A stretch of DNA of 64,000 nucleotides from assembly GCA_934149325.1 (NCBI GenBank), contig CAKPEJ010000003.1:11142-75141 (forward strand). The letters run 5' to 3'. The translations under genes and the position numbers were made by a program. The notes below the pieces were generated by a model, which did no database searches, was not told the DNA's origin, and saw only the letters and a program-made list of their open reading frames with translations. Positions 5,121-34,892 of this stretch are shown piece by piece. Origin of the DNA: an uncultured Bacilli bacterium (lineage in GTDB: Bacteria > Bacillota_I > Bacilli_A > RF39 > UBA660). Position 1 is the stretch's first letter. Every line of letters begins with the position of its first letter.

Positions 5121-5216
5121 TATTTATCACCTTTATAATTTTACCATAAATTTTTAATTTAGAATAGATGTAATTATTATAACTTTAATTTTATTAACAT
5201 TTGTGCTATAATTTCT

Positions 5217-5891
5217 TTGGTGATTTATATGGATTTAGAAAAAAAATATGATATAGATTTTAAAGAACCTTTATTGGTTAGAGCATTTACTCATTCATCT
5301 TATGTTAATGAAACAAAAAAAGGTGAAGATTATGAAAGATTAGAATTTTTAGGTGATAAAATACTTGATTTTATAGTTAGTGAATATTTATATGTAAATA
5401 ATCATTTTAGTGAAGGAGAAATGACTAAATTAAGAGCAAGTTATGTATGTGAAAATGCTCTTTATGAATATTCTACTAAACTAGGATTAAATGAAAAATT
5501 AAGATTAGGTAAGGGTGAAGAAGCAACAGGTGGTAGATATAGAAAAGCTGTAGTTGCAGATATATTTGAAGCATTCTTAGCTGCAACGTATTTAATTTAT
5601 GGACTTGAAAAAGCTAAAGAAATAGTTTATGACGTAGTTATTCCATATATAGAAGATGGAGTTAATTTATTTTTAAATGATTATAAATCTTTACTTCAAG
5701 AATTAGTACAAACTGATAAAAAAAGTACAGAGTATGTAGTAGTAGATGAAGAAGGTCCAGCACATAATAGAATATTTACAGTGGTTGTAAAAGTTGATGG
5801 TGTGATTCTCGGAAAGGGAAGTGCAACTTCTAAAAAAGAAGCAGAACAACAAGCTGCAAAAGATGCACTTAGTAAGCAAGCAAAAGCATAA
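5217..5891 (+). CDS. rnc: Ribonuclease III
   Basis: RNase III signature ERLEFLGDKILD plus a C-terminal dsRBD (GPAHNRIFTVVV...KKEAEQQAAKDAL). Confidence 0.85.
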   Translation: MVIYMDLEKKYDIDFKEPLLVRAFTHSSYVNETKKGEDYERLEFLGDKILDFIVSEYLYVNNHFSEGEMTKLRASYVCENALYEYSTKLGLNEKLRLGKGEEATGGRYRKAVVADIFEAFLAATYLIYGLEKAKEIVYDVVIPYIEDGVNLFLNDYKSLLQELVQTDKKSTEYVVVDEEGPAHNRIFTVVVKVDGVILGKGSATSKKEAEQQAAKDALSKQAKA

Positions 5892-5997
5892 GTATCGTTT
5901 GATACTTTTTTCATTTACACTGAAAAATAAAATAATATTTGTTTTTTACGTAAAATGTGTTATAATATCAAAGGCTAAAAAACGAGGAGTGAAAAAT

Positions 5998-7809
5998 ATG
6001 AAAAAAAGAAATATAGCAATAATTGCGCACGTTGACCATGGTAAAACAACACTTGTAGATCAATTATTAAAACAATCAGGAACTTTTAGAGACAATGAAG
6101 AAGTATCTGAAAGAGTAATGGATTCAAATGATATAGAAAGAGAAAGAGGTATAACAATACTTGCTAAACCAACAGCTATTAATTATAAAGATTATAGAAT
6201 AAATATATTAGATACACCTGGACATGCTGATTTTGGTGGAGAAGTAGAACGTATAATGCATATGGTAGATGGTGTATTACTTGTTGTTGATGCTTATGAA
6301 GGAACAATGCCACAAACTAAGTTTGTACTTAAAAAAGCATTAGAAGCAGGGCTAAAACCAATAGTTGTAATAAATAAAATAGATAAACCAACAGCAAGAC
6401 CTGAAGGTGTTATAGATGAATTACTTGATTTATTTATAGAACTTGGTGCTGATGAAGAACAATTAGAATTCCCAGTAGTTTATACTTCTGCAATTAATGG
6501 TACATCTAGTTTAGAATCTGATTTATCTACTCAACAGCATACTATGGATCCATTATTTAATTTGATTATAGATAATATTCCAGAACCTATAGAAGATATA
6601 ACAAGTCCACTACAATTCCAACCAGCATTACTTGATTATAATGACTATGTAGGTAGAATAGGTATTGGTAGAATAACTCGTGGTAAGATGAAATTAAATG
6701 AAATGGTATCATGTGTTAGATTAGATGGAAGCATAAAGAAGTTTAGAATACAAAAAATGTATGGTTATTTAGGTCTTAAAAGAATAGAAATTAATGAAGC
6801 AGAAGCAGGAGATATAGTTGCAATCGCAGGGTTACCTGATTTAGAAGTTGGAGAAACAGTTTGTACAGAAGGAAAAGAGGAAGCTTTAACTCCACTTAGA
6901 ATTGATGAACCAACTCTTCAAATGACATTTGGTGTTAATACATCTCCATTTGTTGGAAAAGAAGGTAAATTTGTAACAGCAAGTAAAATTGAAGAAAGAC
7001 TTAGAAAACAAGCAGAAAGTGATGTATCATTAAAAATTGAAACTAATGATGCTGAAAGCTGGATAGTATCAGGTAGAGGAGAACTTCACTTATCAATATT
7101 AATTGAAAATATGAGAAGAGAAGGATATGAACTTCAAGTATCAAAACCAGAAGTAATATTAAAGGAAATAGATGGTCAAATATGTGAACCATATGAAGAT
7201 GTTCAAATAGAAGTTCCAGAAGAAAATGTTGGTCCTGTAATAGAAGCTCTTGGTATGAGAGGCGGAACTATGGAAAACATGACTAATTTACCAGGTATAG
7301 TAAGACTTAATTATATCGTTCCATCAAGAGGTTTAATTGGATTTACAACAGATTTTATGACAATGACAAAGGGATTTGGTATTTTAAATCATACATTTAG
7401 AGAATATTTACCAAAAGTAGAAGCAGATGTTGGAGAAAGAAAACTTGGTGTATTAGTTTCAATGGAAAATGGTAAAACAACAGCGTATGCTTTAGGTGCT
7501 CTAGAAGATAGAGGTGTTATGTTTGTTGATCCTGGTGTTGAAGTATATGAAGGTATGATTGTTGGAGAAAACAATAGAGAAAATGACCTTGCTGTTAATG
7601 TTGTTAAAGGTAAAAACTTAACAAATACAAGAAGTTCTGGTAAAGATCATACTGTTGTTCTTAAGAAGACAAGACCAATAACATTAGAATATGCACTTGA
7701 ATATATAAATTCTGATGAATATGTAGAAGTTACACCAATAAACTTTAGAATGAGAAAGAAAATTTTAAATACAGAAGAAAGAAAGAAATTTGATGCTAGA
7801 AATAGATAA
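5998..7809 (+). CDS. typA: Translational GTPase TypA/BipA
   Basis: [36 protein letters not shown]. The true start is MKKRNIAI at 5998; the track ORF from 5821 is an upstream in-frame extension. An extended -10 (tgttataat) lies upstream. Confidence 0.9.
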
Positions 7810-18258: not shown

Positions 18259-18753
18259 GTGTGTTATTTAGATGGAGAATATAATCAAATTGTTTATGAT
18301 ATACTTAATAACGAAGAATTTAAAAAATTAAAAAATATTGAACATCATGGTATGACTAGATATGATCATTCACTTAGAGTTTCATATTATTCATATGTTC
18401 TTGCTAAAAAGATAGGTCTTGATTATGTATTAGTTTCAAGAGCAGGATTGCTTCATGATTTCTTTTTTAGTGAAGATGATAGAACAAAAAAAGATAGATT
18501 AGTATCAACATTTGTTCATCCTAAATTTGCGGTTGAAAATTCACTAAAATACTTTTCAATAACAGAAAAAGAAAAAAATATAATAGAATCTCATATGTTT
18601 CCTTTATATAAGACTTTACCTAAATATAGTGAAAGTTGGCTTGTTAGTATAGTTGATAAAGTAGTAGCGACATATGAATTTAGTCAAAAATTTAAATTTA
18701 AACTTGATTATGCAACTAATTTAATGATTTTGTTTATTATAAGCAAACTTTAA
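18259..18753 (+). CDS. HD-domain phosphohydrolase
   Basis: HHGMTRYDHSLRVSYYSY...LLHDFF HD motif. Confidence 0.65.
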   Translation: MCYLDGEYNQIVYDILNNEEFKKLKNIEHHGMTRYDHSLRVSYYSYVLAKKIGLDYVLVSRAGLLHDFFFSEDDRTKKDRLVSTFVHPKFAVENSLKYFSITEKEKNIIESHMFPLYKTLPKYSESWLVSIVDKVVATYEFSQKFKFKLDYATNLMILFIISKL

Positions 18754-18764
18754 ATTAGTTTTTT

Positions 18765-18812
18765 TATTTATCAAATATAGGACACCAATACCAAAAGCTG
18801 TTGTTGCTAACT
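18765..18812 (+). other. Putative attL-type site of a large serine recombinase (inverted relative to attR)
   Basis: In gene orientation: B arm ...GCAACAACAGC, core TTTTGG, P' arm TATTGGTGTCCTATATTTGATA. The P' arm is the inverted counterpart of the P arm at 29776-29792. Confidence 0.6.
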
Positions 18813-20007
18813 CAACTGGTCCAACTTTATCTAAATCAAATAAAATACCTGTTGCTTCACCATTTAAATCTATTCCAGTTTTTTTACCAAATCCAAATTT
18901 ATTTATATAACTAAATAATTTTTCTTTTCCAAGTCTTTGACCTAATGCAACAAATCCAGGGTTACATGAATTTTCAACAACTTGAAGAAAAGTTTGAGAT
19001 CCATGACCACCACTTTTCCAACATTTTATTTTTGCATTCGCAACTCTTACACTACCACCATCATAAAAATGTTCTTCAGTTAAATTAACAAGATTTTCTT
19101 CTAAAGATGATGCAAGAGTAATTATTTTGAATGTTGATCCTGGTTCATAATTCATCCAAATAGGTAAATTCCTATTAATTTCTTCTAATGAGTATTTTTG
19201 ATAATTCGCAGGATCAAAATTAGGTCTTGAACTCATCGCTAGTATTTCACCAGAGTTAGGATCCATCGCAATCGCAAGTGCATGTTCAGGATTATATTTA
19301 GTAACTACATTATCAAGTTCTCTTTCAACAGATAATTGTATATCATTATTTATTGTTAACTCTATATTAATTCCATCAGCTGGTTCTTCATATATTTCAT
19401 TTAGTTTTAATTTATTACCCTTAGCGTCTGAAAAATATTTTATAGATCCATAAGCACCTGTCAAATATTTATTATATTGTAATTCAAGTCCTGATAATCC
19501 TTGATTGTCTATTCCTACATATCCTAAAACATGTGATAGGTTTTTGTCATAAACATAATTTCTTTTTGATTCTTTTACTAAATAAACTCCATCTATTTTT
19601 AAAGCATTTATCTTATCTGCAACTTCAAAAGGTAATCTTCTTCCTTCTGGATGTACTCTTTCTATAGATGTCTTTTTATTTACGTGTTTACTCATTTCTT
19701 CTTCATCAATATTTAATATTTCAGCAAGTTTCTTTGTTGCAGTTTTTTTATCCTTTATTTGATTTGGTATTAAAACTAAACTTGTAGTTGTAACATTATT
19801 CGCAAGAACAGTTAAATTTCTGTCGTAAATAATACCTCTATTTCCTTCAATAGGTAAGTTTCTACTCCATAAATCATTTGAGAGAGTTGTAAGTTTTTTA
19901 TATTCAATTACTTGTATATATAAAACTTTTAATAATACTATTACAAACAACATAATTACTATTACAAAAAATAATCTAATTTTTAAATGAATATCTTTAA
20001 CAAACAC
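18786..20007 (-). pseudogene. Class B PBP (PBP2/SpoVD-like), 5' segment of a gene split by an 11-kb invertible segment
   Basis: N-terminal TM, dimerisation domain, STFK and SCN motifs. The homology ends at ...ELATTAFG and then runs into unrelated codons (IGVLYLINKK*). The missing KTG-containing remainder lies at 29782-30489 on the other strand. Confidence 0.8.
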
Positions 20008-27340: not shown

Positions 27341-27481
27341 ATGGACAAGTATAATTATGAATACAGTATATTAAAATATAGATTATTACTTAATAAAAGA
27401 TTATATGAAGAGAAGGTTATTGATATAGAAACTTATCAAAAAATGGAAGATTATTTAATAAAAAAATTAAATAGAGGGTGA
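27341..27481 (+). CDS. Small ORF (46 aa) immediately upstream of and overlapping the recombinase gene
   Basis: MDKYNYEYSILKYRLLLNKRLYEEKVIDIETYQKMEDYLIKKLNRG; RBS AAGGAAA. Not in the supplied ORF track because it is under 60 aa. Confidence 0.3.
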   Translation: MDKYNYEYSILKYRLLLNKRLYEEKVIDIETYQKMEDYLIKKLNRG

Positions 27482-29043
27482 TACTTATTAATATTGTAAA
27501 AATAAGAAATGAAATAAAAAATGGTAAAAATTTATGTGATATGAATTTAAGAGTTGTGTATTATGCAAGGGTATCAACAGACAAAGATGAACAAATAAAT
27601 TCTTTGGAAAATCAGAAAAATTACTTTGAAGAATTAATTAATGAAGAAAAAAACTGGATATTATCTGGTTCATATATAGACGAAGGAATATCTGGTACTA
27701 GTGTAAAAAAAAGAGAAAGTTTTTTAAAAATGATAAGTGATGCAAAAAAAGGTAAGTTTGATATGATACTTACAAAAGAAGTATCTCGTTTTGCTCGTAA
27801 TACTATTGATTCAATTAAATATACTCAGTATTTACTTGAAAAAGGTGTTATAGTAAATTTTATAAATGATAACATTAATACAGTTTTTTCAGATTCAGAA
27901 TTTAGGTTAACACTAATGTCTAGTTTAGCGCAAGATGAGGTTAGAAAATTAAGTGAAAGAGTTAAATTTGGATTTAAGAGAAGTATAAAAGATGGAAGAG
28001 TATTAGGTGGAGGAAATATAACTGGATATGATAAAAGAAATGGAAAATTGTATATAAATGAAAAAGAAGCAAAAATGATAAGGATGTTATTTGATTTATA
28101 TGTATCAAATGGATATGGGTTTAAGAAAATATCTAAAATATTATTTAGTCATGGTTATAAAAATACTAAAGGAGAAATGTATTCAGAAAGAGTTCTTTCA
28201 AGAATGATTACAAACCCAAAATATAAAGGATACTATTGCGCAAATAAAAGCTATATTGAAAATTATAGAACTCATAAAAAAATACTGAAACCTAAAAGTG
28301 AATGGATAATGTATAAGGATGAAAATATACCAGTTATAATAGATGAAAAAATATTTGATGAAGCAAATAGAATATATAATGAAAAAAGAAAAGTGAGTAA
28401 AAGAAATTTATATAATATTGAAAAAATATATGCAGGAAAATTAATATGCAATTGTCATAATAAAAATTTTTCTATTATTTCATCAGGTAATAGAAAAAAT
28501 AAGCCAGTATGGGTTTGTCAAGAATATATAAAAGACGGTGTGAAAGGTTGTTTAAGTCCAATACTAGAAGAAGAAAAATTAAATGATATATTTAAAAAAG
28601 TAATAAAAGAAAATTTCTTTTTAGATGATAAATTAACTCAAAACATATTAAACGATTATGTAAAAATAATAAATTTTGATAATAAAAAAGAAGAATTGAT
28701 AAAAGTAAAAAATAAAATAATTTTATCAAAAGAGAAAATATTAGAATTATTTATGGAAGATATAATAACAAAAGATGAGTATAAGATTAAAAATGATAGT
28801 TATAATAAAGAGTTAGAAAATATAAATGAAAAATTAAAAAGTATAGATAAATATGATAATAAGAATGATATAAAAAAATTAGAAAATAAAATTCAAAAGT
28901 TTTTGAATATAGATAATTCATATAAAGACTTATTTAAAATATTAGTAGATAAAGTTATAGTTGAAAAATGTGATGGGGATAGAAATAATATAAAGTTAAA
29001 TATTTATTTTAATTCAAATAAAATTATAGGCATAAAGTATTAA
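27478..29043 (+). CDS. Large serine recombinase (SpoIVCA/phiC31-integrase family)
   Basis: N-terminal resolvase catalytic domain with the serine motif (VVYYARVSTDKDEQ...SLENQ...GYIDEGISG...SRFARN), then recombinase and zinc-ribbon/coiled-coil domains (CNC...C). 521 aa. Possible true start at MNLRVVYYAR. Confidence 0.9.
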   Translation: MILINIVKIRNEIKNGKNLCDMNLRVVYYARVSTDKDEQINSLENQKNYFEELINEEKNWILSGSYIDEGISGTSVKKRESFLKMISDAKKGKFDMILTKEVSRFARNTIDSIKYTQYLLEKGVIVNFINDNINTVFSDSEFRLTLMSSLAQDEVRKLSERVKFGFKRSIKDGRVLGGGNITGYDKRNGKLYINEKEAKMIRMLFDLYVSNGYGFKKISKILFSHGYKNTKGEMYSERVLSRMITNPKYKGYYCANKSYIENYRTHKKILKPKSEWIMYKDENIPVIIDEKIFDEANRIYNEKRKVSKRNLYNIEKIYAGKLICNCHNKNFSIISSGNRKNKPVWVCQEYIKDGVKGCLSPILEEEKLNDIFKKVIKENFFLDDKLTQNILNDYVKIINFDNKKEELIKVKNKIILSKEKILELFMEDIITKDEYKIKNDSYNKELENINEKLKSIDKYDNKNDIKKLENKIQKFLNIDNSYKDLFKILVDKVIVEKCDGDRNNIKLNIYFNSNKIIGIKY

Positions 29044-29117: not shown

Positions 29118-29774
29118 ATGGAAAAAGTAGTAAAAAGTGATTTAAGTAATGTATATAAAGAAGTTAAAGATAGTTTATTTGAATGTAAAATAATGAATGA
29201 GAATATAAGAAATGCAAAATATCACCATAATGCTAAATTTTTTCAAGGTCCATCTATAATAAAATCAGGAATTTTATCATTAGATGAACAAAGAAAATTA
29301 GAAGGAAGAAAAATTACTGAAAGAGAAAAAAATATTTTAAGTGATGAATGTTATGTTAATGGTAGTGAATATATATCTATTTCTAGTGGTGATATTGATT
29401 ATGAATATATATCAGAAAAAGAATTTATATATAATTCTACTTTACCTAACTTTTTGGATATATTAATTTCAAATGATATATCAGCTATGAGAAATAGTAT
29501 TAATTATGCTAATGAATATTTAGTTTATAAGAGAATATCTCCTAAAAAAATAGAGTCAATAGATACGAGAATTTTAGCCTTGTCAAATCTTTCTACTATG
29601 AATGAAGAAGAAAAAATTAATGAAATAATTAAGAATTTTAATTATATAAGATTAATTTCAAAAGAAATATTAAAACGCAATAGGGAAATTTTATTACGTG
29701 AAGTTAGTGATGATGAAATAAATTTAGATGTAGAAAAGTTAACTAAAATGCCTAAATTAATATTAGAAAAATAA
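29118..29774 (+). CDS. Hypothetical protein adjacent to attR (candidate accessory/directionality factor)
   Basis: 218 aa, no recognisable motifs. The stop codon abuts the attR P arm. Confidence 0.3.
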   Translation: MEKVVKSDLSNVYKEVKDSLFECKIMNENIRNAKYHHNAKFFQGPSIIKSGILSLDEQRKLEGRKITEREKNILSDECYVNGSEYISISSGDIDYEYISEKEFIYNSTLPNFLDILISNDISAMRNSINYANEYLVYKRISPKKIESIDTRILALSNLSTMNEEEKINEIIKNFNYIRLISKEILKRNREILLREVSDDEINLDVEKLTKMPKLILEK

Positions 29775-29815: not shown

Positions 29816-30489
29816 CACCTATACAGCAAATAACAGCAGTTTCAGCAGCAATAAATGGTGGAAAGTTATATAAACCATATGTTGTAAAAAGTATGCTTGA
29901 GCCAGAAACAAATACTCCTATAAAAACAAATAAAAAGAAACTTGTTAGAAGGGTAATTAGTAAAGATACTAGTAAAAAAGTTGCAATGGCACTTGAAAGT
30001 GTTGTAACTAATGGAACTGGTAGAAATGCATTTATTGATGGATACAGGGTAGGTGGTAAAACAGGTACTGCACAAAAAGTAAAAGATGGAAAATATATGG
30101 CAGGAAATTATATTGTTTCTTTTATTGGCTTTCTTCCAGCAGATGATCCTAAAATAGTAGTATATGTTGCAATTGATAATCCTAAGGGAGTAGTTCAATA
30201 TGGTGGAACAGTTGCAGCACCAGTTGCAAGAGCAATATTAGAAGATTCAATAACAGCTTTAAATATAAAAAAGAGAAAAGATGCAAGTGAAAAAAATTAT
30301 CAATTTTGGGAGAAAAAATATGTAGAAGTACCAAATTTAATAGGTCAGAACTATGATAAGATAAAATTTAATTTAGGTAGTTTTGATGTTCAATATTCTG
30401 GAAGTGGAAATAATATTATATATCAATCACCTAAAGCAGGAGAAAGAGTACTTGAAGGAAGTAAAATTAGAATACTTCTTGGCAATTAA
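29782..30489 (+). pseudogene. Class B PBP, 3' segment (transpeptidase C-terminal part with KTG motif) of the split gene
   Basis: Frame is open from 29767 with no start codon. ...FGQGVSVTPIQQITAVSA...GYRVGGKTGTAQKV... continues exactly where the minus-strand 5' segment stops (…ATTAFG). Confidence 0.8.
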
Positions 30490-31578: not shown

Positions 31579-32666
31579 TGAAAAAATTCGATTATAAATT
31601 ATTTGTACTCGTAGTATTATTATCAATATTTGGAATAGTTATGATTTTTTCTTCATCAGCTATATGGGCTGAATATAAATTTGACGATAAATATAGATTT
31701 TTAAAACTACAGAGCCTATTTTTTATAATTGGTATAATAGCAACAATCATAATATCAAAAGTAGATTATAAGAACTATTTAAAGAAAGCAAATGTTATAT
31801 TACTAGTTTGCTTTCTTTTATTAATTTTAGTATTAATACCTGGTATAGGAACACTTAGAAATGGTTCTAGAAGTTGGTTTGGAATAGGTGGACTTGGTGT
31901 TCAACCTAGTGAATTTATGAAACTTGGTATAATAATATTTGCAAGTAAATATTTAAGTAATTATCCAAAAGATATTAAAGATATAAAAAAAGGTGTATTT
32001 CCTATATTATTTTTAACCTTTTTAGTATTTGGACTTATAATGCTTCAACCGGATCTTGGAACAGGAGCAATAATATTAGTAACTGTAATTGGTTTGTTAT
32101 TTGTATCTGGTGTTGATATGACTTTCTTTGCAAGGATAATAGGTCTTGGATTGATAGGTTTATCAGCTCTTATAATAGCAGCACCATATAGAATAAAAAG
32201 AATAGTAGCATTTTTAAATCCATGGAGTGATCCACTTGGTTCAGGATTTCAATCTATTCAATCATTATATGCAATAGGTCCAGGAGGGCTCTTAGGAATG
32301 GGATTATTTAATTCTGTACAAAAGCATTTTTATCTTCCAGAACCACAAACAGATTTTATATTTTCAATAATTAGCGAGGAACTTGGTATTCTTGGTATAG
32401 TATTAGTTGCTACGTTGTTTATAAGTATAATATATAGATGTTTAAAAATATCCATTAACTGTAATGATTTGTTTGGAAAATATTTAGCATTTGGTATAAC
32501 ATTTCAATTAACATTTCAAACTCTTTTAAACTTAGCAGTAGTAGTTGGTTTAGTACCAATAACTGGCGTCACACTTCCATTTTTAAGCTATGGGGGATCA
32601 AGTCTTATAATTACATTGTGTAGTATAGGAATAATTTTAAATATAAGTAGACATCAAAATAAATGA
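31578..32666 (+). CDS. ftsW: FtsW/SpoVE-family lipid II flippase/peptidoglycan glycosyltransferase
   Basis: Start MKKFDYKLF overlaps the mraY stop (ATGA). SEDS-family polytopic protein (…PEPQTDFIFS…). Confidence 0.85.
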   Translation: MKKFDYKLFVLVVLLSIFGIVMIFSSSAIWAEYKFDDKYRFLKLQSLFFIIGIIATIIISKVDYKNYLKKANVILLVCFLLLILVLIPGIGTLRNGSRSWFGIGGLGVQPSEFMKLGIIIFASKYLSNYPKDIKDIKKGVFPILFLTFLVFGLIMLQPDLGTGAIILVTVIGLLFVSGVDMTFFARIIGLGLIGLSALIIAAPYRIKRIVAFLNPWSDPLGSGFQSIQSLYAIGPGGLLGMGLFNSVQKHFYLPEPQTDFIFSIISEELGILGIVLVATLFISIIYRCLKISINCNDLFGKYLAFGITFQLTFQTLLNLAVVVGLVPITGVTLPFLSYGGSSLIITLCSIGIILNISRHQNK

Positions 32667-32711
32667 TTTATAAAAATTGCAAAGATATAAAAAATATGTT
32701 ATTATGTATGT

Positions 32712-32821
32712 AGCAAGAAATCTTGCATAAAATAAAAAAGGGAACATTCAATTTCGCAAGTGAATGTCATCCTTAATTGAAATGGTATGACACTCTACGT
32801 ATGAAGAGTGTCTATTTTTTT
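32712..32821 (+). ncRNA. Candidate antisense (antitoxin-like) sRNA, unit 1
   Basis: Promoter TTGCAA(32677)-N17-TATTAT(32700). Hairpins gcaagaaatcttgc and acattcaa..ttgaatgt. Terminator gacactct..agagtgtc followed by T8. Confidence 0.45.
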
Positions 32822-32904
32822 ATTGCTAGTACCAGTAAGGTAGATAGTAGTAAAATTATAGAAATGTACTTAAGAACTTTTAAGATAAAAGTTTTAGTTT
32901 TCAT
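32812..32904 (-). CDS. Type I toxin-like small hydrophobic peptide (30 aa) MKTKTFILKVLKYISIILLLSTLLVLAIKK
   Basis: RBS AGGAGG. Own promoter TTGCAC-N17-TACAAT on the minus strand (32968-32996). The 5' UTR carries CCTCCT, which can pair with the SD. The 3' end overlaps the convergent sRNA. Confidence 0.45.
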   Translation of the reverse strand: MKTKTFILKVLKYISIILLLSTLLVLAIKK

Positions 32905-33078
32905 TATTCTACCTCCTTTCTTATAAAGAATAGGAGGACGACACTCACATTAAATGTTCCTGTAAACATTGTAGCAAACAAATGTTTAATGTGCAATTAG
33001 TTTAATAAAAATTCATAAATAAAAATGATGTAATTTATAAAAATTGCAAAGAAATAAAAAATATGTTATTATGTATGT

Positions 33079-33194
33079 AGCAAGAAATCTTGCATAAAAT
33101 AAAAAAGGGAACATTCAATTTGCTAAGTTGAATGTCTACCAAAATGTTTTTTGAAGGCACTTATCTTTGCAAGAGATGAGTGCCATTTTTATTT
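33079..33194 (+). ncRNA. Candidate antisense sRNA, unit 2
   Basis: Promoter TTGCAA(33044)-N17-TATTAT(33067). Terminator ggcacttatct..agatgagtgcc followed by a T-run. Confidence 0.45.
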
Positions 33195-33204
33195 ATAGGT
33201 AATA

Positions 33205-33288
33205 CTACTTCAATACTATGAAGAGTAAAGCTATTAATAAGATGATAACAGTGAGTAAGATAGAAATTAAAAAATCTTTCTTAGACAT
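33205..33288 (-). CDS. Type I toxin-like small hydrophobic peptide (27 aa) MSKKDFLISILLTVIILLIALLFIVLK
   Basis: RBS GAGGAGG. Minus-strand promoter TTGCAC-N17-TATAAT (33356-33384). Confidence 0.45.
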   Translation of the reverse strand: MSKKDFLISILLTVIILLIALLFIVLK

Positions 33289-33466
33289 ATATCAATAACC
33301 TCCTCTCTATAAAGAGTAAGAGGTAGACACTCAACAATTAAATGTTCCTGTAAATATTATAGCAAACAAATGTTTAGTGTGCAATTAGTTTAATAAAAAT
33401 TCATAAATAAAAATGATGTGATTTATAAAAATTGCAAAGAAATAAAAAATATGTTATTATGTATGT

Positions 33467-33582
33467 GGCAAGAAACCTTGCATAAAATAAAAAAGGGAAC
33501 ATTCAATTTGCTAAGTTGAATGTCTACCAAAATGTTTTTTGAAGGCACTTATCTTTGCAAGAGATGAGTGCCATTTTTATTT
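33467..33582 (+). ncRNA. Candidate antisense sRNA, unit 3 (identical to unit 2)
   Basis: Promoter TTGCAA(33432)-N17-TATTAT. Confidence 0.45.
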
Positions 33583-33592
33583 ATAGGTAATA

Positions 33593-33676
33593 CTACTTCA
33601 ATACTATGAAGAGTAAAGCTATTAATAAGATGATAACAGTGAGTAAGATAGAAATTAAAAAATCTTTCTTAGACAT
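33593..33676 (-). CDS. Type I toxin-like small hydrophobic peptide (27 aa), unit 3 copy
   Basis: Identical to the 33205-33288 ORF. Confidence 0.45.
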   Translation of the reverse strand: MSKKDFLISILLTVIILLIALLFIVLK

Positions 33677-33854
33677 ATATCAATAACCTCCTCTCTATAA
33701 AGAGTAAGAGGTAGACACTCAACAATTAAATGTTCCTGTAAATATTATAGCAAACAAATGTTTAGTGTGCAATTAGTTTAATAAAAATTCATAAATAAAA
33801 ATGATGTGATTTATAAAAATTGCAAAGAAATAAAAAATATGTTATTATGTATGT

Positions 33855-33960
33855 GGCAAGAAACCTTGCATAAAATAAAAAAGGGAACATTCAATTTTGC
33901 AAGTGAATGTCGTCTCATAAGTTGGGAGACACTCTACATATGCAGAGTGTTTATTTTTTT
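33855..33960 (+). ncRNA. Orphan sRNA copy (unit 4, unit-1-type) without a cognate peptide gene
   Basis: Promoter TTGCAA(33820)-N17-TATTAT(33843). Terminator acactct..agagtgt followed by T8. Overlaps the spurious track ORF 33806-34000. Confidence 0.4.
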
Positions 33961-34018
33961 ATTTATAGACGATACTGTTTTTTATATAATTATAACGTGA
34001 TATAAGGGAGGTTTTAAA

Positions 34019-34606
34019 ATGTTAGATACAGAATTACAACAATTAAGAGATAAATATAATTCATTAATAGAAGAAAAAGAAAGATTGATTGATTTATCTA
34101 ATAAAATAAAAGAACTAAAAAAGTTACCTGTTATACAGGAATATTTAGAATCTACAAAAGAGTATAAACAAATTAGGTCTAAAGATTATACGAATGATGG
34201 ATTAGAAAATCAACCTAATTCATATTTTGTAAGAAATGCTTTTAGCCATTTAGATATTACTCCTAGAAATGACTATTTTGTTTATATGGGAACTTATAGA
34301 CATACAACTGAAGTTGATATTGAACATGGAGCAAATGATATTGAAGTAAGTCGAAATGACAAAAGCGCTGATTATGTTATTTATTATAATTTGGAAGCTA
34401 GAACTCATAGTATTGATTCAAGTGTTATTATTCCTTATTCTGAAGCTGATAAATTTGAGTCAACTCATAAAATTATATTTCCAAAAAATACATTATTTAA
34501 AGAAAAGTATTTTTATGATTTACAAGACGAATACTATGAAACAGCAATCTTAGAATCTCAAGAAGAAGCTATTAATAAAATTAATAAATTAGTAAGAAAA
34601 GAATAG
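34019..34606 (+). CDS. Hypothetical protein (N-terminal coiled coil)
   Basis: RBS GGGAGG; no recognisable motifs. Confidence 0.3.
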   Translation: MLDTELQQLRDKYNSLIEEKERLIDLSNKIKELKKLPVIQEYLESTKEYKQIRSKDYTNDGLENQPNSYFVRNAFSHLDITPRNDYFVYMGTYRHTTEVDIEHGANDIEVSRNDKSADYVIYYNLEARTHSIDSSVIIPYSEADKFESTHKIIFPKNTLFKEKYFYDLQDEYYETAILESQEEAINKINKLVRKE

Positions 34607-34737
34607 ATTTATTCTTTTTTTTGTAAATGAATTAATTATTTTAAATGGACTGAATAATATTAAATATATTAAAAAAAATTTATAATATAAAAAAGTTTGA
34701 TATAATTATTATAGTTATTATCATAAGGAGGTATTGA

Positions 34738-34892
34738 TAATAATGAGCGCCAGACCATTTAATTGGTGACGAGGTTGATAGATAATCGAAAATTCGGCGG
34801 ATTCTATCACGGGTAAGTACTCGTTAGATATATAACAAAAAATAAAATCAAAATTATAACAAAGTATATATCAAACAAAAAAAGAAAGAGGT
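34738..34892 (+). ncRNA. glmS ribozyme (GlcN6P-sensing riboswitch) in the glmS 5' UTR
   Basis: AGCGCCAGACC...GGTGACGAGG...ATAATCGAAAATTCGGCGGATTC...CACGGG matches the conserved glmS ribozyme core (AGCGCC cleavage-site region; GACGAGG; UCGAAUUUUCGGCGGAU). Confidence 0.8.

Follow-up and report, generated by a model that had tools for sequence, protein, structure and literature searches.

What kind of genetic element is repeated head to tail beside the cell-division gene ftsW of an uncultured gut bacterium of the Bacilli? In the stretch of 64,000 nucleotides (nt) analysed here (contig CAKPEJ010000003.1; hereafter the window), positions 32664-33968 are occupied by three complete units of 367, 388 and 388 bp, each combining a gene for a short RNA on the plus strand with a convergent gene for a peptide of 27-30 amino acids (aa) on the minus strand, and by a fourth unit holding the plus-strand RNA gene only. 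Our analysis of this array and of its relatives makes it probable that the units are chromosomal type I toxin-antitoxin-like modules, members of a previously undescribed family of uncultured gut Bacilli, in which the plus-strand RNA would act as the antitoxin and the peptide is presumably toxic to membranes when made.

A preliminary description of the window had reported a tandem array of convergent peptide/antisense units, three complete and one partial and 367-388 bp long. The array is real. Tandem Repeats Finder returned a period of 388 with 2.6 copies and 97% matches, and a 33-nt core occurs four times in the window as compared with 0 occurrences expected by chance. The number and length of the units were borne out by a repeat search, which recovered a 108-nt plus-strand module four times (at spacings of 367, 388 and 388 bp) and a 300-nt module three times. 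Aligned with one another, the units display two conserved blocks, one made of the plus-strand promoter and the first ~65 nt of the plus-strand RNA, the other of the minus-strand promoter and its 5' untranslated region (UTR), with a variable block between them that contains the peptide open reading frame (ORF) and the plus-strand terminator. Units 2 and 3, previously taken to be identical, are not: they differ at 3 of 388 positions and are thus distinct copies rather than the product of assembly collapse.

Each complete unit has the signals of two convergent genes (coordinates are collected in Table 1). The preliminary description had placed on the plus strand a TTGCAA-N17-TATTAT promoter and a structured, separately terminated RNA, and on the minus strand promoters for an mRNA whose Shine-Dalgarno (SD) sequence is sequestered by an anti-SD and which encodes a 27-30 aa peptide with a single transmembrane (TM) segment and charged ends; all of these elements were found in the window and proved to be conserved across the family described below. 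A consensus scan located the plus-strand promoter four times, always with an upstream TG, and TGCACA-N16-TA(C/T)AAT three times on the minus strand, while plus-strand terminators number four in the array, compared with 0.2 expected. The plus-strand RNAs (~115 nt) fold into three hairpins with z-scores of -4.4 to -5.5, the order of parts in RNA 1 being hairpin 1, an A-rich linker, hairpin 2 and the terminator hairpin. The peptides of the window have 16-17 consecutive hydrophobic residues between K/R, a basic N-terminus and a C-terminal K or KK.

Hairpin 2 is read on both strands. Its complement on the minus strand forms the terminator hairpin of mRNA 1, with a U-run from 32739 down to 32730, and this complement followed by UUUUUUAUUUU is the sole plausible terminator of the peptide mRNA. 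With RNA ends placed in this manner, the two transcripts would overlap by ~92-95 nt, with full complementarity, within the 3' UTR and terminator of the mRNA. An overlap of 85-110 nt that included the 3' end of the peptide gene had been proposed earlier; the length and the involvement of the terminator hold, and the inclusion of the ORF hardly does, since the overlap reaches it by at most ~11 nt in unit 1 and by 0 nt in units 2 and 3.

The preliminary description had also raised the matter of copies in related genomes, and these are numerous. An exact-match scan of a collection of species-representative genomes with the 23-base hairpin 2 motif (AAAAGGGAACATTCA-N8-14-TGAATGTC) yielded at least 119 loci in metagenome-assembled genomes (MAGs) of at least ~100 species. 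Among the matches listed, the hosts are all MAGs, recovered from the guts of rabbit, ruminants, mouse, chicken and human, and carry the labels Bacilli, Tenericutes/Mycoplasmatota, Erysipelotrichaceae, Ca. Ventrenecus, CAG:582, CAG:594 and a few others, these last probably reflecting mis-binning. The same plus-strand RNA is present at every one of the loci and the convergent mRNA likewise at most of them, the latter with a -10 box, a 5' box (AGGGAAUAUCAGUUGUUGAGUGUCUACC), the anti-SD, AGAGAGGAGGUUUGAUAAAnAUG and a 30-aa ORF whose stop codon lies within the A-run of the plus-strand terminator. Promoters of the form seen in the window precede the plus-strand RNA in 127 of 143 family copies and the peptide mRNA in 87 of 99 family units. 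A covariance model of the plus-strand RNA (R1) matches only the four array copies in the window and 144 copies in the family loci, diverged neighbours of canonical copies included. Eighteen other loci contain 2-3 copies each (mostly 300-590 nt apart), and several MAGs have family copies on different contigs. No cognate ORF was detected for 33 of 132 RNA copies, a few of these being cases of frameshifted or screen-missed ORFs.

The diverged subfamilies adjoin canonical copies (L103 40-748, L084 5732-5852, L060 6778-6903, L104 1782-2355 and L040 2457-2581) and differ from them both in hairpin 2 (GGAAUACCUAGU..., GGGAAUACUUAAC..., GGAUACAUUUGAU...) and in the peptide (e.g. MKKTEKYLCAIIILLIIVILIILIKIVPIV, MSKKDFLILSLILIIFLLIALLFTFVI), which makes them useful for tests of specificity and cross-talk. 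Conserved synteny with ftsW, glmS or the 195-aa gene that lies between the array and glmS was considered and rejected, as only L117 (through glmS) and L019 share neighbours with the array. In L117, a rabbit-gut MAG with a GlmS 76% identical, a copy of the plus-strand RNA (5165-5290, +), for which no peptide ORF was detected, is located ~350 nt upstream of glmS (5647-7458), and the 195-aa gene is missing; a solo copy close to glmS may thus predate the array.

Both partners of the module appear to be under selection. The coding analysis covered 61 unique 93-nt ORFs specifying 51 unique peptides, all of 30 aa. Codon-position entropy in this set is 0.64/0.39/0.81, and the ratio of synonymous to nonsynonymous changes is 0.44 in frame versus 0.19 and 0.08 in the other two frames; by these measures the 30-aa ORF shows a coding signature across the family. 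The peptide profile M-K-[TK]-[KR]-T-F-I-I-K-V-L-[KR]-x-I-x-I-I-L-x-L-L-[IT]-x-[ML]-[IV]-x-V-I-K-K consists of a basic N-terminal third, 16-17 hydrophobic residues and a terminal KK, with I17, L18, I28, K29 and K30 invariant. Peptides of the 27-aa B class (M[SG]KKDFLI...LK) are located in homologous UTRs, and intermediates such as MKRKDLLISFLILIIILQIVSVMMLAIKK bridge them to the 30-aa A class. As for the RNA, a model-based alignment of 120 copies has 94.4% of its cells paired and compensatory changes in 24 of 29 pairs; none of 500 shuffles was as good on any measure, and slid controls had 25-47% of cells paired. Pairs of the G·U type are frequent in the hairpins (GU 93, UG 98, UG 59), and as each of them becomes C·A on the opposite strand, it is in the plus-strand RNA that the hairpins are selected.

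Within the species itself the array varies. The 195-aa protein is encoded on many human-gut metagenome contigs, which represent independent assemblies of this species. The spacer between ftsW and the 195-aa ORF in ten such contigs holds 2, 3 or 4 full units, always followed by a solo copy of the plus-strand RNA; the array is therefore polymorphic in copy number among strains or, in places, collapsed in assembly. The peptides are conserved across these contigs, with a third variant, MKTKTFIIKVLKFITIILFLLIIMIVVIKK, in L006 and L008 and with read-through or frameshifted versions on two contigs, and one contig (L010) begins 392 nt upstream of the 195-aa gene, in the array region.

Existing resources do not cover the family. 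Rfam, searched at the gathering threshold and with E up to 1, has nothing in 32664-33968 and matches the window only at the glmS ribozyme and an L21 leader. The peptides had no meaningful match in Pfam (E up to 10), NCBIfam, PADLOC or PHROGs, and ten representative family peptides, both window variants included, were absent from 15 billion predicted proteins in an exact look-up. Neither a motif scan of viral contigs nor a blastn search of one unit against phage and plasmid collections gave a match. A mobile-element or prophage context was dropped on these grounds, and the hint of a prophage or CRISPR-adjacent setting in the preliminary description is unsupported.

Taken together, these observations match what is expected of type I loci. 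Tandem repetition in one intergenic region is a recognised type I hallmark, used as such by Fozo et al. 2010 (PMC2887945), and it is seen here in three full and one partial unit, in 2-4 full units in other strains and in the 18 other multi-copy loci. The encoded products are small (27 and 30 aa, well within a limit of ~70 aa) hydrophobic peptides with a predicted TM segment, with the coding signature in 61 ORFs. The antisense gene has a convergent promoter and a terminator of its own, a structured product and, if the RNA ends are placed correctly, ~92-95 nt of complementarity to the mRNA. Tandem repetition is in keeping with type I loci, and so is the disappearance of the toxin from units that keep the antitoxin (PMC2887945).

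Of the other explanations, the one that survives best supposes a gene for a small membrane protein under ordinary cis-antisense control, the peptide being a beneficial or neutral component or a regulator whose level is tuned by the RNA. The peptide is strongly conserved over ~100 species, with a fixed length and the five invariant residues, and such conservation would be explained equally well by a specific partner in the membrane and by the formation of pores or lesions; the peptide matches no toxin family, and it is a putative toxin only. On the other hand, several traits of the family are typical of type I systems and unusual for housekeeping small proteins (PMC2887945), namely multiple tandem copies in variable number, scattered and non-syntenic loci, three predicted layers of repression (the SD hairpin, the panhandle and the antisense RNA), and an ORF that has repeatedly been lost or frameshifted while the RNA was kept. 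On balance, we consider this explanation unlikely.

Less probable still, to the point of being improbable, is that the main functional product is the plus-strand RNA itself: a small RNA, trans-acting or structural, with the peptide mRNA as a target or a passenger and the solo copies as the functional form. The RNA is indeed more conserved than the ORF (the 23-base motif is exact in at least 119 loci), some 25% of copies are without a detected cognate ORF, and a solo copy stands upstream of glmS both here and in L117. However, hairpin 2, the most conserved segment, is under a threefold constraint from the peptide mRNA, being its terminator, the segment that pairs with its 5' box and the site that the antisense RNA targets; no other conserved target is evident and no Rfam family matches. 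A repeat without function or an artefact of assembly, for instance a miniature mobile element or a collapsed or expanded repeat, is very improbable as the explanation and already largely refuted: copy number does vary between short-read assemblies, and L010 does start in the array region, but units 1, 2/3 and 4 differ in sequence (at 3 sites even between units 2 and 3), the coding signature and the RNA covariation show selection, and there are neither terminal inverted repeats nor transposase genes nor any viral, phage or plasmid match.

With type I toxin-antitoxin-like modules as the preferred interpretation, the question becomes how the antisense RNA would control the peptide. Over its first ~25 nt the mRNA repeats the sequence of antisense hairpin 2 without the loop, which makes this 5' end complementary to the mRNA's own terminator region, and we predict that it closes onto that region as a panhandle. 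The minimum free energy (MFE) folds of window mRNAs 1 and 2 contain such a structure. It is present in 96% of the MFE folds of 81 family mRNAs (defined as at least 15 of ~24 box nt paired with the 3' UTR, typically 22-24), compared with ~5 nt paired when the 5' box is shuffled. Duplexes between the box and the 3' UTR have a mean energy of -34 kcal/mol for cognate and -26 kcal/mol for non-cognate pairs, and the margins are large for diverged subfamilies (e.g. -36 versus -17/-22 for L060 and -24 versus -10/-22 for L103), in which both sides of the panhandle have changed together, as in GUACUUGCC with its terminator and UUAGGUACUAUUC with its terminator. Helix II is 97.9% paired, as compared with 93.5% with permuted partners, and has double compensatory changes at six positions. 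The CUA nucleotides, which are unpaired in the hairpin, also co-vary, which speaks for pairing in cis, with the exact complement, rather than in trans with the antisense RNA. RNAalifold on a raw MAFFT alignment of the mRNAs recovered only the terminator and a 7-bp long-range helix; recovery of the panhandle needed folding of each sequence separately, because the register shifts in the alignment. As a separate observation, the plus-strand RNA model also scores the 5' parts of the peptide mRNAs (33265-33386 and 33653-33774, -) with 25 bits and an E value of 0.058, which independently points to a sequence module common to the leader and the antisense RNA.

In all the states that were modelled, the SD sequence is for the most part base-paired. 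When the 3' UTR is masked, which mimics its occupation by the antisense RNA, opening the SD is predicted to cost 7.3 instead of 5.1 kcal/mol (+2.2); the cost goes up in 60 of 80 mRNAs and down in 7 (Wilcoxon p 6e-12), because the released CUACC is predicted to extend the anti-SD helix. An arrangement like that of hok and aapA, in which the SD is concealed by the long-range helix, is unsupported, as mean SD accessibility is alike with and without the 3' UTR.

These elements suggest the following course of events. From the minus strand an mRNA of ~230-250 nt for the 27-30-aa peptide would be transcribed, and from the plus strand an antisense RNA of ~115 nt with three hairpins. As sequence and folding show, the SD is sequestered by a local anti-SD hairpin, and in the full-length mRNA the first ~25 nt would pair with both arms of its own terminator to give the 5'-3' panhandle that is predicted and supported by covariation. 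The antisense RNA may then bind the 3' UTR, probably beginning loop-to-loop, and displace the 5' box; the freed CUACC would lengthen the anti-SD helix and tighten the translation block, and the long duplex, together with the unprotected ends, would offer substrates to RNase III and exonucleases, leading to mRNA decay. Solo antisense copies such as that of unit 4 could supply an extra dose of antitoxin or be relics of units that have lost the toxin gene.

A more daring version, which we offer only tentatively, is that the antitoxin mimics the mRNA's 5' end. Hairpin 2 and the mRNA 5' end would compete for the terminator of the mRNA, and displacement would flip a three-state switch, uncap both ends for RNases and permit graded cross-talk. 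The three states (the panhandle, the tightened SD hairpin and an alternative pairing after the stop codon) are a possible but by no means favoured arrangement. It is similarly conceivable, with the odds somewhat against it, that array members and solo antitoxins cross-talk through their common hairpin 2 core. The predicted duplex of RNA 4 with the 3' UTR of the unit 1 mRNA has an energy of -98 kcal/mol, versus -143 kcal/mol for the cognate RNA. If true, such mimicry would amount to a mode of regulation that is not described among Gram-positive type I systems, and the family using it would be limited to uncultured gut Bacilli.

Several points weigh against this account of the locus. Transcription start sites (TSSs) and 3' ends of both RNAs were placed from consensus motifs only, and in this AT-rich region a simple scan for promoters shows no overall enrichment (15 found versus 13.2 expected), so that the promoter argument relies on positional conservation across the family. 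Most family members were retrieved by a pattern that fixes hairpin 2, which limits the variation that could be observed, in hosts that are all MAGs. RNAalifold prefers GACACUY, immediately downstream of the stop codon, as the partner of the heptamer GAGUGUC, and this pairing has compensatory changes at three loci; the exact long-range register is ambiguous, and the two pairings could represent alternative states. The 5' box, being the copy of a hairpin, also has partial complementarity to the antisense RNA, and some of the covariation could therefore reflect trans pairing. Finally, mean per-nucleotide SD accessibility is nearly equal between the states (0.23 versus 0.22), the shift appearing only in opening energy.

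Table 1. Positions in the window of the array units and of their predicted transcription, RNA and peptide features
Feature	Position	Strand	Length or score	Description
Unit 1	32664..33030		367 bp	variant A; encodes the plus-strand RNA and the 30-aa peptide
Unit 2	33031..33418		388 bp	variant B; plus-strand RNA gene and 27-aa peptide gene
Unit 3	33419..33806		388 bp	variant B; 3 positions unlike unit 2
Unit 4, partial	33807..33968			solo plus-strand RNA gene, variant A-like, without peptide gene
Promoter of plus-strand RNA 1	32677..32705	+		TTGCAA-N17-TATTAT, TG-extended; equivalents 33044-33072, 33432-33460, 33820-33848
Promoter of peptide mRNA 1	32968..32996	-		TTGCAC-N17-TACAAT; equivalents 33356-33384, 33744-33772 (TATAAT)
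Plus-strand RNA 1, putative antitoxin	32711..32822	+	~112 nt; family model 101.9 bits	inferred TSS
Plus-strand RNA 2, putative antitoxin	33078..33192	+	family model 118.4 bits	
Plus-strand RNA 3, putative antitoxin	33466..33580	+	family model 118.4 bits	
Plus-strand RNA 4, solo copy	33854..33962	+	family model 92.5 bits	
Hairpin 2 of plus-strand RNA 1	32740..32772	both		equivalents 33107-33140, 33495-33528, 33875-33907
Peptide mRNA 1	32731..32962	-	~232 nt	inferred ends
Peptide mRNA 2	33098..33350	-	~253 nt	inferred ends; mRNA 3 alike at 33486-33738
5' box of mRNA 1	32937..32962	-		AGGAACAUUUAAUGUGAGUGUCGUCC; boxes of mRNAs 2 and 3 at 33323-33350 and 33711-33738
Anti-SD (CCUCCU) / SD (GGAGG) hairpin, mRNA 1	32913..32938	-		
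ORF A	32812..32904	-	30 aa	MKTKTFILKVLKYISIILLLSTLLVLAIKK
ORF B	33205..33288	-	27 aa	MSKKDFLISILLTVIILLIALLFIVLK
ORF B, second copy	33593..33676	-		same peptide

The array is flanked on the left by ftsW (PF01098) and on the right, in this order, by the 195-aa ORF (34019-34606, +), a glmS ribozyme (34735-34882; 68.8 bits) and glmS. The location between ftsW and glmS given in the preliminary description is right in outline, with the 195-aa ORF and the ribozyme intervening before glmS. This ORF is preceded by a strong SD; it had no match in Pfam or PADLOC and no credible one in PHROGs, is identical in many human-gut assemblies (81 index blocks) and is absent from the related loci examined.

Farther to the left, a penicillin-binding protein (PBP) gene is split into two halves of opposite orientation ~10 kb apart. 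The N-terminal half (18721-20007, -) comprises PBP_dimer and positions 2-161 of the transpeptidase profile, and the C-terminal half (29893-30489, +), located just upstream of mraY and ftsW, comprises transpeptidase positions 192-299 and PASTA. A large serine recombinase (27478-29043, +) is encoded near the C-terminal half. Inversion of ~18.7-29.8 kb would restore an intact PBP gene in the order of the dcw cluster, and a recombinase-driven gene switch may be at work. The ends of this putative invertible segment were searched for inverted repeats, with nothing convincing and no clear boundary repeats as the result. The recombinase, a 218-aa ORF (29118-29774, +) lying between it and the PBP fragment, and the C-terminal PBP fragment itself are present in 8 of 10 same-species contigs, L007 having a variant left flank; the 218-aa ORF is kept with the recombinase in 9 of 9 contigs that reach there and had no match in Pfam, PADLOC or PHROGs.

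Current knowledge of type I systems comes mostly from a handful of cultured model species. The family described here occurs in at least ~100 uncultured species of the animal and human gut, is missed by gene callers and has no entry in Rfam, Pfam or NCBIfam; with the covariance model and the peptide profile obtained here, such loci can now be annotated. Covariation among its natural variants supports a 5'-3' panhandle of the mRNA in combination with an antisense RNA that overlaps at the 3' side, and these variants make possible a family-wide test of dual control of the SR4/bsrG type, which has so far been based mainly on one system. The analysis also flags, beside ftsW/glmS, a strain-variable repeat that breaks or collapses short-read assemblies.

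How do these modules compare with known type I systems? Judged from the predicted transcripts, their layout belongs to the Gram-positive type with 3' overlap that the T1TAdb paper lists (PMC8594479). Fst/RNA II (par of pAD1) and SprA1/SprA1as are likewise Gram-positive and convergent, with a 3' overlap outside the ORF (PMC8594479), a short hydrophobic toxin and repeats common to the 5' part of the mRNA and the antisense RNA. In those systems, however, the productive interaction takes place outside the overlap, at the mRNA 5' region (PMC8594479), and in this the array departs from them: the shared element has the same sense in both of its RNAs, and the mRNA 5' end is therefore complementary to its own 3' end and not to the antisense RNA, trans complementarity being only partial, through the palindromic hairpin. 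In addition, hmmscan of the peptides against Pfam (E up to 10) gave no toxin family, Fst_toxin included. With hok/Sok and aapA/IsoA the array has in common, by prediction, a long-distance 5'-3' interaction of the full-length mRNA, with covariation, and local hairpins that sequester the SD (PMC6733600). The antisense RNA of those systems acts at the 5' part or initiation region of the mRNA, whereas that of the array is directed at the 3' UTR, where it covers the 3' partner of the long-range helix, and the SD of the array is, unlike that of hok and aapA, predicted to be sequestered locally rather than by the long-range helix.

The preliminary description had likened the array to txpA/ratA and bsrG/SR4 alike, and the two comparisons fare differently. 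The txpA/RatA system of B. subtilis resembles the array in its convergent transcription with 3' overlap and in its toxin, which is encoded on a Firmicute chromosome and has one TM segment, but its antisense RNA overlaps the ORF (PMC8594479), which that of the array barely touches (by no more than ~11 nt). The working logic would come closest to that of bsrG/SR4. In the bsrG mRNA, helix P1 joins nt 1-35 with nt 232-262, and binding of SR4 was shown experimentally to lengthen the SD helix from 4 to 8 bp, besides promoting decay (PMC3834814). The two systems are without sequence relationship: the bsrG peptide has 38 aa versus 27-30 aa here, and the array has no Rfam or Pfam match. In the array the predicted long-range helix takes its 3' strand from the terminator hairpin itself, and in bsrG from a segment upstream of the terminator; bsrG/SR4 resides in the SPβ prophage of Bacillus subtilis, whereas the array is chromosomal, multi-copy and tandem, with an overlap that barely reaches the ORF. 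In both, nevertheless, the genes are convergent, the antisense RNA faces the 3' part of the toxin mRNA, the SD lies in a short helix and a 5'-3' helix (in the array known by prediction only) has its 3' strand inside the region complementary to the antisense RNA, so that the predicted panhandle and the +2.2 kcal/mol cost of SD opening would follow the logic of bsrG/SR4.

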